64,000 nt of DNA from Gemmatimonadales bacterium (GCA_035637455.1 DASPXE010000227.1:12078-76077); one strand, 5' to 3'; shown: positions 57,638 through 61,978, numbered from the stretch's first letter. Numbers and translations: made by a program. The notes: generated by a model from the letters alone, not told the origin.

Positions 57638-57722
<85 letters not shown>

Positions 57723-57728
57723 GCGACG

Positions 57729-59192
57729 TCAGTAGCGTGGCAGCGACGAATCCACGTTCACCGCCCACGCATCGATCCCGCCGCGCAGGCTGCGCACTTT
57801 CGCAAAGCCCGCCGCCTTCAAGATCTCGAGCGCCTTGAGCGAGCGCGCGCCGTGGTGGCAGTGCGTCACGACTGCACGGTGACCGTCCAGCTCTCCCAGG
57901 CGGTCCGGCAGTTCGCCCAACGGAATGAGGACAGCACCAGCGATGTGGGCGATCTCGTACTCGTGCGGCTCGCGCACGTCGATCACGAGGAGATCCGGGT
58001 TCCCTTCCCACTCCGCCTTGAGATCCTGCGCGGTGATCTCCGCTCCGTCATAGGACGGCTCGGCGCCGATCCCACAGAACGCTTCGTAGTCGATCAGCTC
58101 GGTGACGCTGGGATGGCTGCCGCACACCGGGCAGTCGGGATCCTTCTCGAGCTTGAGCTCCCGGAACTGGAGCTTCAACGCGTCGAACAGCACCAGGCGT
58201 CCGATGAGCGGCTCGCCCGCGCCGAGAATCAGCTTGATCGTCTCCATCGCCTGAAGCGACCCGATGATCCCGGGGAGCACGCCCAACACACCGCCCTCGG
58301 CGCACGAGGGCACCAGTCCCGGGGGCGGTGGCTCGGCGTACAGGCAACGGTAGCACGGGCCGGCTTTGGCGTAGAACACCGACGCCTGTCCCTCGAATCG
58401 AAAGATCGAGCCGTACACGTTCGGCTTGCCGAGCAGCACGCAGGCGTCGTTTACGAGATAGCGGGTCGGGAAGTTGTCGGTGCCATCCGCCACGATGTCG
58501 AAATCGCGGATGATGTCGAGTGCGTTCTCCGATGTGAGGCGCGTCTCGAAGGCCTCGACCCGGACATTCGGATTCAGGTCGCGGATGCGCTCGGTCGCCG
58601 ATTCGAGCTTCGGCTTTCCCACCGCGGCCGTACCGTGGATGATCTGCCGCTGCAGGTTCGTCTTGTCCACGACGTCGAAGTCGACGAGACCGATCGTCCC
58701 CACGCCGGCGGCTGCCAGATACAGCGCGGCCGGAGAGCCGAGCCCGCCGGCGCCCACGAGCAGCACGCGCGCGGCTTTGAGTCGCTTCTGCCCCTCTACC
58801 CCGACATCGGGAAGGATCAGGTGGCGCGAATACCGCAGAATCTCCTCGTGCGACAGGTTGGGTAGCGGCGCAGCGTGCTCCGTCCCTGCATGCACCGCCG
58901 TCGCCATCGTGCCCCCTGACCCTCCGGCGATACTCGGGATGATCGAAACAGTGTCGCCCGACCGCACCGGCGTCTCCTGGGCGGAGAGCTGGCGAATGTC
59001 CCGATCGTTCAGGTAGACGTTGACAAAGCTGCGCAACCGCCCGTCGTCGGCAAACAGGTGTTTGCGCAGTGCGCTGTGCTCGCCGGACAGCCGGTCCAGG
59101 AGCTCACCGATGCTGGCGGCCTCCACCTGCACGGCGTCGCGGCCGCCCACGTAGGGGCGCAGCGGTGTGGGGATCAAGACGGTCACTGCCAT
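57729..59192 (-). CDS. in-frame fusion of a CysO/ThiS/MoaD-type sulfur-carrier protein (aa 1-91) with a MoeZ-type adenylyltransferase/rhodanese (aa 96-487)
   Basis: MAVTVLIPTPLRPYVGGRDAVQV...FVNVYLNDRDIR...GDTVSIIPSIAGG is the carrier with its diglycine end. SGGT follows, then MATAVH...YSRHLILPDVGVEGQKRLKAARVLLVGAGGLGSP (ThiF/MoeB fold), CxxC pairs, and a C-terminal rhodanese (VVTHCHHGARS). The ATG at 59192 lies after AGGAG. Confidence 0.85.
   Translation of the reverse strand: MAVTVLIPTPLRPYVGGRDAVQVEAASIGELLDRLSGEHSALRKHLFADDGRLRSFVNVYLNDRDIRQLSAQETPVRSGDTVSIIPSIAGGSGGTMATAVHAGTEHAAPLPNLSHEEILRYSRHLILPDVGVEGQKRLKAARVLLVGAGGLGSPAALYLAAAGVGTIGLVDFDVVDKTNLQRQIIHGTAAVGKPKLESATERIRDLNPNVRVEAFETRLTSENALDIIRDFDIVADGTDNFPTRYLVNDACVLLGKPNVYGSIFRFEGQASVFYAKAGPCYRCLYAEPPPPGLVPSCAEGGVLGVLPGIIGSLQAMETIKLILGAGEPLIGRLVLFDALKLQFRELKLEKDPDCPVCGSHPSVTELIDYEAFCGIGAEPSYDGAEITAQDLKAEWEGNPDLLVIDVREPHEYEIAHIAGAVLIPLGELPDRLGELDGHRAVVTHCHHGARSLKALEILKAAGFAKVRSLRGGIDAWAVNVDSSLPRY
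58908..58919 (-). other. linker occupying the place of the expected cysO stop codon and the moeZ ribosome-binding spacer
   Basis: The minus strand reads GGA GGG TCA GGG GGC ACG ATG. TCA is one substitution from TGA. GGAGGG/AGGGGG would serve as the Shine-Dalgarno for the ATG at 58905-58907. Confidence 0.7.
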
Positions 59193-59626
59193 ACGACTTT
59201 CCGCTCCTCTATGGTGATGGACTCTTCGTCGAACGCCGCGCGATCGTCCGACAGCGTCCAGCTCTTCATTTCCGCCGCGTGCCCGCGTGTCACTCCCAGA
59301 ATCACGTACGAGAGCCACGGCCACGCGTGCTCCCGGTCGAACGTGGAGGGCACCGCCGCGTGGTCGGGGTGTGAGTGATACACCCCGATCACCTCGAGCC
59401 CGTCGCGGTCGAGCCGCTCCTGCGCGCGGCGGAACGACACGGGATCGATGAGATAGCGATTCCGCGCAGCGTCCGTCCGCTGATTCACGAGCGGCACGAG
59501 TGCTACCGCTATCTTGCGGGCGCCGTCGGCCGTGCCGCCGATCAGCCCGCACGCTTCGGCTGGATAATCGGCTTCGCCGTGCCGTCGGATCGCCGTCGCG
59601 TGCCGCAGCTCGAGGACGAGGGTCAT
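59183..59626 (-). CDS. mec: JAMM/MPN+ metalloprotease, Mec-like
   Basis: 147 aa. EACGLIGG and the JAMM motif HSHPDHAAVPS. It sits between cysM and the carrier gene. Confidence 0.85.
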   Translation of the reverse strand: MTLVLELRHATAIRRHGEADYPAEACGLIGGTADGARKIAVALVPLVNQRTDAARNRYLIDPVSFRRAQERLDRDGLEVIGVYHSHPDHAAVPSTFDREHAWPWLSYVILGVTRGHAAEMKSWTLSDDRAAFDEESITIEERKVVWQ

Positions 59627-60603
59627 GCGGCGTCTCCCGCCAGACGCCGGCGCTCGCTCAGATAACGGTACCCCGAATCGGGAGCGATGACCACGACGAC
59701 GGCGGTCGGGCGGTCAGGCGGTCGGCCGGTCAGGACGCGCTCCGCGGCCACGAGCGCGGCCCCAGTGGACCAACCCACGAAGAGGCCGGCCTCGCGCGCC
59801 AGACGGCGCACCGCTCGGTCCGCCTCCTCTGTCTCGACGAACTCCGTCAAGTCGGGCAGCATGGGATCGTAGATCCCCGGCACGATGGCGGTCTCGAGGT
59901 GCTTCAAGCCTTCGAGCCCATGGAATGGGCCATCCGGTTGCACCGCGACGAGCTCGACCCGAGGACTCAATTCCTTCAAACGCCTGCCGGTTCCCACGAG
60001 CGTGCCGGTCGTGCCCACGCCGGCGACGAAATGCGTGACCCGGCCGGCCGTTTGTCGCCAGATCTCTGCGGCGGTCGTGAGATAGTGGGCCCGAGGGTTC
60101 GCGGGGTGGTTGTATTGGTCAGCGTACCAGAATTCACTGGATCGCTCCGCCGCGAGCCGACGCGCTTCGCGGATCGCGCCGTCGGAGCCTTCGAGCGGAT
60201 CGGTGAAGACCACCTCCGCGCCGTAGGCGCCGAGCAGCGCCTGGCGCTCCGCGCTCGCGTTGCGGGGCACGCAGACCGTGACGCCGATCCCCGCGGCGGC
60301 GCCCAGCATGGCGTACGCGATCGCCGTATTGCCGCTCGACGCGTCGAGCAGCCGTTTACCCGGCAGCTCGCCCCGGGCGATCCCGTCTCGCAAGATGAAT
60401 AGCGCAGCGCGGTCCTTTACCGAGCCGCCGGGGTTGAGCCACTCGGCCTTGAGAACGACGGACGGTCGAGGGCGGTCGAGGGCGGTCGAGGGCGGTATAG
60501 GGATCAGTGGCGTGTTGCCCACCAGCCCCCACAGTGCGGGTTCGCGGCCGGCCTCGACCGCCTGCGACCGCCTTTGACCGCCCTCGACCGCCGCCGTTTT
60601 CAC
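59623..60603 (-). CDS. cysM: PLP-dependent cysteine synthase, CysM-like (sulfur-carrier dependent type inferred from context)
   Basis: GNTPL...LKAEWLNPGGSVKDR...SSGNTAIAYA...GVGTTGTLVGTG. The GTG at 60603 forms a GTGA overlap with the rhodanese gene. The upstream part of the 492-aa track ORF is rejected. Confidence 0.85.
   Translation of the reverse strand: MKTAAVEGGQRRSQAVEAGREPALWGLVGNTPLIPIPPSTALDRPRPSVVLKAEWLNPGGSVKDRAALFILRDGIARGELPGKRLLDASSGNTAIAYAMLGAAAGIGVTVCVPRNASAERQALLGAYGAEVVFTDPLEGSDGAIREARRLAAERSSEFWYADQYNHPANPRAHYLTTAAEIWRQTAGRVTHFVAGVGTTGTLVGTGRRLKELSPRVELVAVQPDGPFHGLEGLKHLETAIVPGIYDPMLPDLTEFVETEEADRAVRRLAREAGLFVGWSTGAALVAAERVLTGRPPDRPTAVVVVIAPDSGYRYLSERRRLAGDAA
60464..60592. 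repeat. inverted pair of tandem 10-nt arrays inside the 5' coding region of cysM
   Basis: Arm A, 60464-60493, is a perfect GGTCGAGGGC x3. Arm B, 60551-60590, is gcctcgaccg/cctgcgaccg/cctttgaccg/ccctcgaccg, the reverse-complement units, imperfect x4. The arms are about 57 nt apart. The conserved GNTPL motif is encoded in the loop. Confidence 0.8.
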
Positions 60604-61463
60604 TCTGCTCCCTTCGCAATGGGGGCGCCGACGAGGTTGCCCCACTCGGTCCACGACCCGTCGTAATTCCGCACCTTCTTGACGCCGAGCAGGTACTTGA
60701 GCGCGAACCAGGTATGGCTCGACCGCTCGCCGATGCGGCAGTAGGCGATGATCTCGTTCCCGCCGTCGATGGCCTTCGCCCCCTTGTACAGCTGCAGCAG
60801 CTCCTCGAACGGCTTGAAGGTGCCGTCGGGCGCCACGGCCTGGCTCCACGGGACGTTCTTCGCGCCGGGGATGTGACCGGCGCGCTGCGCCGTCTCGGTC
60901 ATGCCGGGCGGCGCGATGATTTCTCCGACGAACTCCGGCTTCGATCGGACGTCCACCAACACGGTCTTCTTGGCTTTCAGCGCCTTCTCGACGTCGGGGC
61001 GCTTGGCCCGGAGCGCGGCGTTCAGCTTCGTGGGGACCGGGTAGACCGTCGCGCGGACGCTCGTGCGCTCGGTCACGAGGGGCCGACCCTCCGCCACCCA
61101 CTTCGCCCGCCCGCCGTTCATGAGCTTCACGTTCGTGTGACCGTACAGCTGCAACAGCCAGAAGGCGAAGGCCGCGAACCAGTTGTTGTTGTCGCCGTAC
61201 AGGACGACCGTGGTCTTGGGCGTGACGCCCGCCTCGGAAAGCAGCGCGGCGAACGCCTTCTTGTCGGGGATATCACGCCGGACCCGGTCGTTCAGCTGCG
61301 ACTGCCAGTTCCAGCCGACCGCGGCCGACAGGTGTCCCGAGTCGTAGGCCGTCGTGTCCACGTCGACTTCGATCAAGCGCAACCCTGCATCGTTGCGGTG
61401 CTGAGCCACCCACTCGGTGGAAACCAGCGCATCGGGATGAGCGTACCCCACAGCGACCTCCAA
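60600..61463 (-). CDS. sseA: two-domain rhodanese sulfurtransferase (thiosulfate/3-mercaptopyruvate type)
   Basis: LVSTEWVAQH is followed by two rhodanese domains and the active-site loop YCRIGERSSH. The start is TTG at 61463 or, more likely, GTG at 61451, which lies 5 nt after GGAGG. Confidence 0.8.
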   Translation of the reverse strand: MEVAVGYAHPDALVSTEWVAQHRNDAGLRLIEVDVDTTAYDSGHLSAAVGWNWQSQLNDRVRRDIPDKKAFAALLSEAGVTPKTTVVLYGDNNNWFAAFAFWLLQLYGHTNVKLMNGGRAKWVAEGRPLVTERTSVRATVYPVPTKLNAALRAKRPDVEKALKAKKTVLVDVRSKPEFVGEIIAPPGMTETAQRAGHIPGAKNVPWSQAVAPDGTFKPFEELLQLYKGAKAIDGGNEIIAYCRIGERSSHTWFALKYLLGVKKVRNYDGSWTEWGNLVGAPIAKGAE

Positions 61464-61525: not shown

Positions 61526-61978
61526 TTAGTTCCCGGCCATGGCCCCGGCGATTTGGTACAACTCGCGCTCATCGTGCATCAGGTCCGCGAGCGAAACGCT
61601 GGCGAGCAGATCGTTGATCCGCTGCTCCAGCATCCGCCACACGGGCCGGATGCTACACGAGGCGTCCGGACTACATCGCTGGGGATCGACCGGGTGAAGA
61701 TCGCAGTTGACTTCGAAGGTGACGTGCTCCGACGCTTCGATCACGTCTTTCACCGTGATGGCCTGGGGGTGTCGCGCCAGATGGTAGCCGCCCTTGGCGC
61801 CTCGCACGGAATCCACCAAGCCGGCGCGGCGTAGGCGCAGCAGGATCTGCTCCACGTAATCGTGGGGCAGCCGCTCCTGCTCGGCGAGCTCACGCGCGGC
61901 CACCGGTCCCTGCCCGGCGCGCTTCGCAAGGTTCAGGGAGACGAGTAACCCATACTCTGCCCAGGTGGTGACGCGCAT
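61526..61978 (-). CDS. Rrf2-family transcriptional regulator with three clustered Cys (IscR/CymR/NsrR-like)
   Basis: MRVTTWAEYGLLVSLNLA...VRGAKGGYHLAR forms the winged helix-turn-helix. Cysteines lie in NCDLHPVDPQRCSPDASC. I chose the start at the Met at 61978. Confidence 0.85.
   Translation of the reverse strand: MRVTTWAEYGLLVSLNLAKRAGQGPVAARELAEQERLPHDYVEQILLRLRRAGLVDSVRGAKGGYHLARHPQAITVKDVIEASEHVTFEVNCDLHPVDPQRCSPDASCSIRPVWRMLEQRINDLLASVSLADLMHDERELYQIAGAMAGN

Follow-up and report, generated by a model that had tools for sequence, protein, structure and literature searches.

This locus raises the question of how a sulfur carrier can work if its gene lacks the stop codon that would expose its C-terminus. 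The DNA analysed is a stretch of 64,000 nucleotides from a Gemmatimonadales bacterium (GCA_035637455.1, DASPXE010000227.1:12078-76077), here called the window, with positions counted from its first letter. Between 57,729 and 59,626 its minus strand encodes a CysO-type carrier fused in frame to a MoeZ-type activating enzyme (an E1-like adenylyltransferase, E1, with a rhodanese domain) and, directly upstream, a JAMM/MPN+ metalloprotease. By established chemistry, an E1-like enzyme adenylates its carrier at the terminal glycine, whose carboxylate must be free, and a rhodanese persulfide then forms the thiocarboxylate; a Gly-Gly inside a longer chain is no substrate for adenylation. The fusion is genuine, conserved and recurrent, JAMM genes co-occur with it, and these operons encode no carrier other than the fused domain. 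We propose, with a probability of roughly 75%, that the fusion is a proprotein which would be cut after its Gly-Gly by the adjacent JAMM protease and would then enter a CysO-type route to cysteine.

The fusion frame (57729..59192, minus strand) opens with ATG at 59192 and closes with TGA at 57731..57729; translation of the minus strand gives 487 codons plus stop, without a single internal stop, that comprise the CysO-type carrier, a linker, the MoeZ-type E1 and a rhodanese domain. The carrier domain (residues 1-91; 58920..59192, minus strand) has the beta-grasp ThiS/MoaD/CysO fold and the C-terminal sequence SIAGG (residues 87-91). Pfam ThiS (PF02597) covers residues 5-91 with 46.2 bits against a cut-off of 22.5. 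The domain aligns end to end with 4n6e_B (E 3e-19) and with Mycobacterium tuberculosis CysO (3dwg_C, E 4e-17), and both chains terminate at a Gly-Gly that is aligned with that of the fusion; the matches to MoaD and SAMP1 structures are weaker (E 7e-8 and 2e-7). As translated, the Gly-Gly of the fusion is not C-terminal: there is no stop codon and 396 more residues follow. A reading of the sequence alone (the sequence-only reading) had described just this continuation past SIAGG into an E1-rhodanese enzyme, and open reading frame, translation and Pfam domains all bear it out codon by codon. By analogy with QbsE, CxnE and MoaX, the encoded form is a putative precursor that would act as a carrier only after cleavage.

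The E1 domain (residues 113-375; 58068..58856, minus strand) belongs to the MoeB/ThiF/MoeZ group and begins at the conserved N-terminal helix LSHEEILRYSRHL. Pfam ThiF matches residues 121-356 (289.9 bits, E 1.4e-86), and the closest solved structures are Escherichia coli MoeB (1jw9_B, E 4e-64), Uba4 (6yub) and ThiF (1zfn). In an alignment of 28 full-length fusions the GxGxxG motif (VGAGGLGS) and the two CxxC pairs (Cys280/283 and Cys354/357) are invariant or nearly so. NCBIfam MoeB/MoeZ models span residues 108-487: MoeB PRK08762 (486 bits, cut-off 449) and the subfamily model PRK05690 (324, cut-off 266) score above threshold, MoeZ PRK07878 (519, cut-off 647) and MoeB PRK07411 (542, cut-off 633) below it. 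The rhodanese domain (residues 376-487; 57732..58067, minus strand; Pfam Rhodanese at residues 388-477, 71.4 bits, E 9e-20) carries the active-site Cys445 in CHHGARS, which is invariant in the 28 fusions. AlphaFold2, run with a 28-sequence alignment that drew on nine diverse sequences taken from a search of cluster representatives, predicts three confident domains (mean pLDDT 82, pTM 0.69), including the N-terminal strand/helix domain and the rhodanese as a separate unit.

Could the missing stop be an artefact of sequencing or assembly, or have been lost only very recently and in this contig alone? The sequence-only reading had left room for both, noting that the coding-strand TCA that follows Gly-Gly lies one substitution from TGA. 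That resemblance is the sole point in favour, and we give the explanation next to no credence. An identical 487-aa protein is encoded on an independently assembled ENA contig, in the gene order Rrf2-rhodanese-PALP-JAB-fusion-SmpB-amidase and with a CysM-type gene of 326 aa. Far from being separate genes with this contig as a singleton, the 120 best homologues (83-100% identity) all combine ThiS, ThiF and Rhodanese; they are 475-488 aa long, save one of 559 aa, and the named sources among them are Gemmatimonadetes/Gemmatimonadales genomes assembled from metagenomes. Three loci of close homologues (L001, L003, L004) have identical synteny, including the 10-nt overlap with the upstream gene, and a profile search for diverse fusions gave, among the matches listed, only fusions, all from Gemmatimonadota at 70-100% identity. 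Beyond these there are hundreds of fused homologues down to 40% identity, a recurrence that chance could not produce, and 28 fused species representatives in about nine phyla (see below). The codon after Gly-Gly is a sense codon in each of five relatives compared (GCC, ACG, ACG, ACC and AGA), and because it differs among them the likeness of TCA to TGA is a coincidence and no hint of history. The base in question, at 58918, is indeed C on the coding strand; it had been assigned to the plus strand, which has G there, within a tga at 58917-58919.

The codons at the junction are GGA GGG TCA GGG GGC ACG ATG on the coding strand. The predicted cleavage site, Gly91-Ser92, falls at the codons GGG TCA (58917..58922, minus strand), and the linker that follows (residues 92-112, SGGTMATAVHAGTEHAAPLPN; 58857..58919, minus strand) is 21 aa long, hypervariable and predicted to be disordered. 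To compare this junction among distant relatives we used residues 1-200 to search 1.84 billion representatives of clusters at 50% identity and took the top 150, of which 74 span the junction at identities down to 40%. The carrier ends in Gly-Gly in 71 of the 74, the three exceptions ending in CG, RR and DL; both glycines, G90 and G91, are invariant in the alignment of 28 full-length fusions. The linker varies from 2 to 32 aa across fusions (∼ 120 aa where a rhodanese is inserted) and has zero conserved columns; the next conserved stretch is the first E1 helix, LSxEEIxRYSRHL. The first residue past Gly-Gly is small in most of the 71 fusions (Ala 34, Ser 20 and Thr 7, together 61), against a background linker composition of 22% Ala and 7.5% Ser. 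In the AlphaFold2 model pLDDT drops below 50 at residues 89-107, that is, over the Ala-Gly-Gly tail and most of the linker. A constrained Gly-Gly next to an unconstrained linker is the pattern expected of an exposed processing site; the disorder and the small residues after Gly-Gly are consistent with removal of the C-terminal part.

One further candidate at the junction can be set aside. The purine-rich GGAGGG had been taken for the former ribosome-binding site of a once separate moeZ, with the internal ATG as its start. That Met is residue 96 (ATG 58907..58905), inside the linker, and initiation there would yield 392 aa as had been calculated; the ATG is missing in most relatives, which have no Met in the linker, and GGAGGG is simply the two Gly codons.

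To gauge the spread of the fusion we scanned GTDB species representatives with a pattern from a 200-residue alignment and re-analysed the loci for frame and stops. The pattern fell in E1, and therefore many matches are the plain MoeZ of Actinomycetota. Among the best 80 of > 600 pattern matches, a sample whose proportions are not unbiased frequencies, 28 loci are fused in frame without a stop, 21 have an adjacent separate carrier gene and 31 have E1 only. These last have no carrier gene ≤ 1.5 kb upstream and are mostly Actinomycetota, as expected for a mycobacterial-type moeZ. Judged by their record titles, the fused loci come from Gemmatimonadota (including Longimicrobiales), several classes of Acidobacteriota, Bacteroidota, Chloroflexota and Eisenbacteria, and further from an Acetobacteraceae, a Ruminococcus, a Treponema and a Thermoplasmata archaeon. 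Architectures vary as well: one homologue (P0131) reads carrier-rhodanese-E1, some Chloroflexota have carrier-E1 without rhodanese, and in Teredinibacter waterburyi (WP_188152452.1; L007:5001-6905) a single protein of 634 aa reads JAMM-carrier(Gly-Gly)-rhodanese-E1. Fused and unfused loci are interleaved on a neighbour-joining tree of E1, on which parsimony requires at least 13 state changes, a rough figure given that the tree is a quick one without support values. Repeated gain or loss is indicated because architectures and linker lengths differ too. Neither this spread and recurrence nor the entry of such fusions in an archaeal catalogue (see below) had been anticipated in the sequence-only reading.

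The JAMM gene accompanies the fusion across this range. Of the 28 fused GTDB loci, 25 have it ≤ 4 kb away: in 22 it immediately precedes the fusion on the same strand, and in three Chloroflexota loci it is downstream. Among the eight loci retrieved from protein homologues it is directly upstream in seven (L001-L006 and L008) and part of the protein itself in the eighth, that of T. waterburyi. A CysM-type gene is adjacent in 19 of the 28. No second ThiS-like sequence was found in the flanks of the 35 fused loci examined, and since CysM and JAMM act on a carrier and no other was found, that carrier must be the fused domain. Neither MoaE, MoaA or MoaC nor thiamine genes appear in the gene tables of the examined loci.

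A natural comparison is instructive here. A Gemmatimonadales locus (L056:3510-5125, DASQIZ010000096.1) has the same fumarase/hypothetical/outer-membrane protein/Rrf2 synteny as the window. There, Rrf2 is followed by an unfused MoeZ of 382 aa that begins MTTHTSTGLSHEEVLRYSRH, and the rhodanese, CysM, JAMM and carrier domain are jointly absent. It looks as if one module had been excised up to the linker.

The 21 loci with separate carrier genes suggest how such fusions could arise. In only three does the carrier stop right at Gly-Gly; 18 bear tails of 1 to about 27 residues beyond it (L023, L026, L027, L030, L031, L036, L044, L046, L048, L051-L055, L065, L070 and L075 among them). Some tails are short (GGC*, GGA*, GGL*, GGAA*, GGIA*, GGAL*, GGLC*, GGNIV*, GGRAM* and GGNFG*, where the asterisk is the stop), others longer (GGSAGGRCR*, GGRPLRCACS*, GGLNLRCICR* and one of ∼ 27 residues), and several contain Cys (GGC*, GGLC*, GGRPLRCACS*, GGLNLRCICR*). 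In L026 one in-frame stop stands between GGC and the E1 start two codons on. Six of the 18 tailed loci, all with tails of one or two residues, have no JAMM gene ≤ 4 kb away (five Acidobacteriaceae/Sulfotelmatobacter and L048). The unfused, JAMM-less state is represented by a Gemmatimonadota locus (L057:3998-5480, DATHRZ010000072.1) with rpoC upstream, in which a separate carrier of 92 aa ends Gly-Gly-stop, 1 nt before an E1-rhodanese of 400 aa, and JAMM and CysM are absent nearby. The carrier family thus appears, from its tails, to depend already on trimming after Gly-Gly, and loss of a stop codon would just lengthen the part that is trimmed. Stop-codon loss is the likely evolutionary route to the fusion, though not a recent one in the window. 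It would be tolerated because the carrier gene directly precedes the E1 gene and a protease that cuts at Gly-Gly is already present. Fusion therefore probably arises easily, and its recurrence can be understood because trimming was already in use and a lost stop only extends the tail.

In the window the fusion is the last gene of a compact minus-strand cluster. An Rrf2-family regulator of 150 aa (61526..61978, minus strand; Pfam Rrf2, E 3e-34) heads it; the protein is CymR/IscR-like, scores below the cut-offs of the NCBIfam IscR and CymR models, and may regulate the cluster. The next gene (60600..61451, minus strand) encodes a tandem-rhodanese sulfurtransferase of 283 aa, similar to thiosulfate and 3-mercaptopyruvate sulfurtransferases, with two Pfam Rhodanese stretches (E 6e-34) and a score of 121 bits, under the cut-off, with PRK11493. 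It is kept only in the closest Gemmatimonadales relatives (L009 included) and is a possible sulfur donor to the rhodanese domain of the fusion. A pyridoxal phosphate-dependent cysteine synthase of the CysM type follows (59623..60603, minus strand; 326 aa, GTG start; Pfam PALP, E 6e-65), and then the JAMM/MPN+ metalloprotease (59183..59626, minus strand; 147 aa), which is Mec/QbsD-like and matches Pfam Prok-JAB (PF14464) with 93.2 bits against a cut-off of 25. As read from the sequence its motif is intact (Glu23 ... His83-Ser-His85-x7-Ser93-x2-Asp96); the closest solved structure, 2kcq_A (E 1e-23), aligns across the motif, and archaeal JAMM1 (5ld9) is matched as well. The GTG of cysM overlaps the stop of the tandem-rhodanese gene (GTGA), the JAMM ATG overlaps the cysM stop (ATGA), and the 3′ end of the JAMM gene overlaps the fusion's ATG by 10 nt, so that the upstream protease gene and its overlap are confirmed as the sequence-only reading had them. 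The CysM-type, JAMM and carrier genes are likewise consecutive with overlapping ends in L001, L003, L004 and L089, and the positions of the Rrf2 and JAMM genes are conserved in close relatives and on the twin contig. A scan for promoters and terminators found none within the cluster, which fits a single operon and is not evidence for one, and no second carrier or E1 was found elsewhere in the 64-kb window. A convergent tRNA-Leu(CAG) gene (57638-57721, plus strand) ends 8 nt past the stop codon of the fusion. The single homologue of 559 aa (P0112) reads past its stop at the same position into what appears to be the antisense of a tRNA gene, probably because its stop codon differs or because the gene was called wrongly.

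Several loci are of interest in their own right. In gut or rumen Firmicutes, the fusion is followed by a gene for an SrpI-like type 2A encapsulin (L006:2334-3281, Evtepia-like; L029:5562-6530, Ruminococcus-like); the former has the JAMM gene directly upstream, the latter has none nearby. SrpI-like type 2A encapsulins are a shell family linked to sulfur metabolism. In a Chloroflexota locus (L035:5337-6560) the fusion adjoins a gene for an MnmA-type tRNA 2-thiouridylase on the opposite strand, with no JAMM or CysM gene in the flanks, and this context hints at a role in tRNA thiolation for some fusions. The T. waterburyi fusion has as neighbours a LuxR/LuxI pair, genes for MacB/FtsX ABC transporters and one with a lanthipeptide-dehydratase C-terminal domain. 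Together they may form a natural-product cluster in which a thiocarboxylate serves as donor. Annotation tends to hide the carrier. In a Gemmatimonadales record (HEY8257299.1; P0275, cf. P0122) the start has been placed at an internal Leu codon (MPKLAHAEVL...), which leaves a ‘MoeB’ of 379 aa, and further NCBI records call the full fusion simply MoeB.

On these data we suggest the following sequence of events. The carrier and its own MoeZ-type E1-rhodanese would be translated as one chain. The JAMM protease, encoded just upstream and translationally coupled, would cut Gly91-Ser92 within the disordered linker, releasing a carrier of 91 aa that ends in Gly-Gly and a free E1. The E1 could then adenylate the carrier's C-terminus, and the rhodanese persulfide would convert it to the thiocarboxylate, possibly with sulfur from the tandem rhodanese of the cluster. 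CysM would join the thiocarboxylate with activated serine to give carrier-cysteine, which the same JAMM would hydrolyse after Gly-Gly, so that cysteine leaves and the carrier is regenerated. Four elements of this scheme are inferred: the cut, which protease makes it, what CysM acts on and where the sulfur comes from. Once freed, the E1 might act on further carriers, much as mycobacterial MoeZR does, which would account for the lone E1 of L056. The part of the sequence-only reading that saw a proprotein matured by the neighbouring JAMM protease is thus favoured by the comparative evidence (Gly-Gly, linker, JAMM adjacency and the want of a second carrier), with the cut itself remaining a prediction.

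Some observations weigh against this proposal. For carrier–E1 fusions, this one included, cleavage is a prediction. Neither the JAMM nor the CysM-type enzyme reaches the threshold of an NCBIfam equivalog model: the JAMM protein scores 76 bits with the NCBIfam desampylase model (cut-off 130) and the CysM-type protein 299 bits with TIGR01138 cysM (cut-off 394). The nearest structures to the latter are E. coli CysM (2v03, E 4e-60) and then M. tuberculosis CysM (3dwg_A, E 1e-48); it appears slightly nearer the E. coli enzyme than the mycobacterial O-phosphoserine enzyme, so that its substrate may be O-phosphoserine or O-acetylserine. The selection of the best GTDB matches and the quick E1 tree limit what the counts of loci and of state changes can carry. 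Finally, tblastn and a Pfam scan of flanking open reading frames found no JAMM in the fetched flanks of three fused loci (L022, L029 and L035). Because the Pfam scans agree, these are real exceptions and not failures of sensitivity; therefore an adjacent protease is either not obligatory or is encoded elsewhere in the genome.

These exceptions bear on the possibility that another protease, or autocatalysis, cleaves after Gly-Gly and that the JAMM enzyme is solely a Mec-type hydrolase of carrier-cysteine. All three keep their Gly-Gly without a flanking JAMM gene, the six tailed carriers without an adjacent JAMM gene point the same way, and MoaX of M. tuberculosis is cut at its Gly-Gly by an ‘as yet unidentified protease’ (PMC4326299). 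A JAMM protein is therefore not the only possible agent here. We nevertheless regard this explanation as unlikely, given that 25 of 28 fused loci have a JAMM gene ≤ 4 kb away, 22 of them directly upstream, that a JAMM domain is part of the same polypeptide in one lineage, and that cutting of linear carrier fusions has been demonstrated for JAMMs of this family. One active site could plausibly do both, the Mec reaction targeting the bond after the same Gly-Gly. It is less credible still that the fusion is never cleaved at all, the N-terminal beta-grasp domain being a structural or regulatory appendage of E1, as proposed for Campylobacter-type ThiF, and the carrier being encoded elsewhere. There is precedent in the ThiF with an N-terminal ubiquitin-like domain that occurs alongside a solo ThiS and for which a different role was inferred (Iyer et al., 2006), and the NCBI pipeline annotates at least one member of the present family as a plain MoeB of 379 aa. 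Such an appendage would hardly be a full-length CysO homologue that ends exactly at Gly-Gly, nor would 71 of 74 diverse fusions keep the Gly-Gly when the positions beyond it vary so freely. CysM and JAMM occur without a solo carrier gene in any fused locus, the carrier domain has been lost along with both in L056, and an internal Gly-Gly could not be adenylated.

A quite different objection concerns the pathway: the fusion might serve molybdenum cofactor (Moco) biosynthesis as a MoaD-MoeB protein and have nothing to do with cysteine. Members are named ‘molybdopterin-synthase adenylyltransferase MoeB’ by NCBI, the MoeB model PRK08762 is exceeded (486 versus 449 bits), passages of PMC11237513 list such fusions under Moco, mycobacterial MoeZR serves MoaD as well as CysO (PMC3227635), and L056 retains E1 alone, so that E1 has a function independent of the carrier. 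The carrier, however, is nearest to the CysO type (E 3e-19 and 4e-17) and more distant from MoaD and SAMP1 (7e-8 and 2e-7), the window and 19 of the 28 fused GTDB loci have a CysM-type synthase gene next to the fusion, and the gene tables of the examined loci list no MoaE, MoaA or MoaC. For the E1 both roles are compatible once it has been released. We consider an exclusive Moco function improbable. Cleavage by the JAMM protease followed by a CysO-type cysteine route is thus the explanation we prefer. In a bolder form, which we regard as doubtful, the fusion would be an obligate zymogen: the uncut tail would hold the E1 dimer, the carrier or both inactive, and the JAMM cut would be the committed switch for thiocarboxylate-dependent cysteine synthesis, possibly under redox or sulfur control, with an exact 1:1 ratio of carrier to E1. 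It would then be a prokaryotic counterpart of ubiquitin-precursor processing that arose independently many times, with the protease recruited into the chain in one lineage.

If the cleavage is as predicted, the rule of JAMM maturation, so far one for short tails and MoaD-MoaE fusions, would also cover a carrier joined to the enzyme that activates it, and fusion followed by ubiquitin-style release after Gly-Gly would be common in bacterial sulfur metabolism. Metabolic reconstructions for Gemmatimonadota, Acidobacteriota and other groups overlook the carrier, and with it the putative carrier-dependent route to cysteine, because pipelines label the fusion as plain MoeB or truncate it (as in HEY8257299.1). 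In practical terms the fusion offers a convenient single-substrate assay for JAMM specificity. A literature search for a described CysO-MoeZ or ThiS-E1 fusion turned up the catalogue of archaeal fusions in PMC11237513 but nothing on mechanism, and no published description of the bacterial breadth, of the link to JAMM and CysM, or of the Gly-Gly/linker constraint as a mark of cleaved proproteins. IMG annotations already string the three functions together. All components and both kinds of JAMM reaction were known before, so the advance is incremental and specialists will not be surprised.

The closest known pathway is that of M. tuberculosis, in which, according to PMC3227635, which cites Burns et al. 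(2005), MoeZR thiocarboxylates CysO, CysM uses O-phosphoserine to form CysO-cysteine and Mec+ releases the cysteine. The window has all the parts (carrier, E1-rhodanese, CysM-type synthase and a JAMM protein of ∼ 147 aa), and its cysM-JAMM-carrier row corresponds to the same three genes as the mycobacterial mec-cysO-cysM cluster. Mycobacteria have a separate carrier gene that ends at Gly-Gly, whereas the window encodes carrier and E1 as one chain, so that an extra maturation cut would be needed. The actinomycete loci retrieved also differ from the window in that moeZ has no carrier gene upstream. An operon of a ThiS/MoaD-like carrier, E1-rhodanese, JAB peptidase and cysteine synthase, all as separate genes, was tabulated in 2006 (PMC1779556, row 4c).

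Carriers fused at Gly-Gly to a pathway partner are known from Moco biosynthesis. The JAMM protein DR0402 cleaves Deinococcus MoaD-MoaE (DR2607) and HvJAMM1 cleaves linear SAMP1 fusions such as Haloferax SAMP1-MoaE (PMC8832034), and M. tuberculosis MoaX is active only once cut between Gly82 and Ser83 (PMC4326299), the same residue pair as Gly91-Ser92 in the window. In those proteins cleavage has been demonstrated and is needed for activity; here it is predicted. Their partner is the downstream user of the thiocarboxylate, for Moco, whereas that in the window is the activating E1, for cysteine.

HcyS is another carrier precursor, reportedly trimmed by the JAMM protein HcyD. For QbsE (GG-CF) and CxnE (GG plus 10 aa), trimming by the JAMMs QbsD and CxnF has been proposed (PMC5925218); as in the window, the Gly-Gly is followed by further residues and the cluster includes a JAMM gene, and the unfused relatives described above bear such tails. 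The extension of QbsE, CxnE and HcyS consists of 1-10 disposable residues, whereas the ‘extension’ in the window is a functional enzyme of 396 aa.

The architecture itself has been catalogued in archaea. Passages of PMC11237513, a screen of archaeal fusions (mSystems, 2024), report MoaD-MoeB and MoaD-MoeBR in Thaumarchaeota (61/98), Poseidoniales and unclassified Euryarchaeota, suggest transfer of the archaeal fusions from Acidobacteria and limit bacterial rhodanese-less MoaD-MoeB to Rokubacteria and NC10. These proteins share with ours the order of carrier and then E1, with or without rhodanese; the same passages do not link carrier–E1 fusions to JAMM, Gly-Gly conservation or CysM. Here the rhodanese-bearing fusion occurs in about nine phyla. 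Our Thermoplasmata locus (L033) has the whole CysM-JAMM-fusion cassette and groups on the E1 tree with Acidobacteriota (Thermoanaerobaculia, L024), a placement that fits the proposed transfer. Campylobacter-type ThiF also has a beta-grasp domain N-terminal to an E1-like Rossmann domain; that domain is distinct from ThiS and, because a solo ThiS co-occurs in its thiamine operons, is thought not to be a carrier (Iyer, Burroughs and Aravind, 2006; PMC1779556). The domain in the window, by contrast, is CysO-like with Gly-Gly, lacks a solo carrier beside it and stands in the context of JAMM and CysM.

The broader analogy is with ubiquitin. Eukaryotic polyubiquitin and ubiquitin-ribosomal protein fusions are released by deubiquitinases after Gly-Gly, and JAMM enzymes are one deubiquitinase family. 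There, as here by our proposal, the sole source of a beta-grasp modifier is a fusion from which it is freed after Gly-Gly; the purpose is conjugation and not sulfur transfer, the partners are other proteins, and the window has no E2 or E3. Set among these systems, the locus reads as a candidate JAMM-matured carrier precursor whose ‘tail’ would be its own E1.

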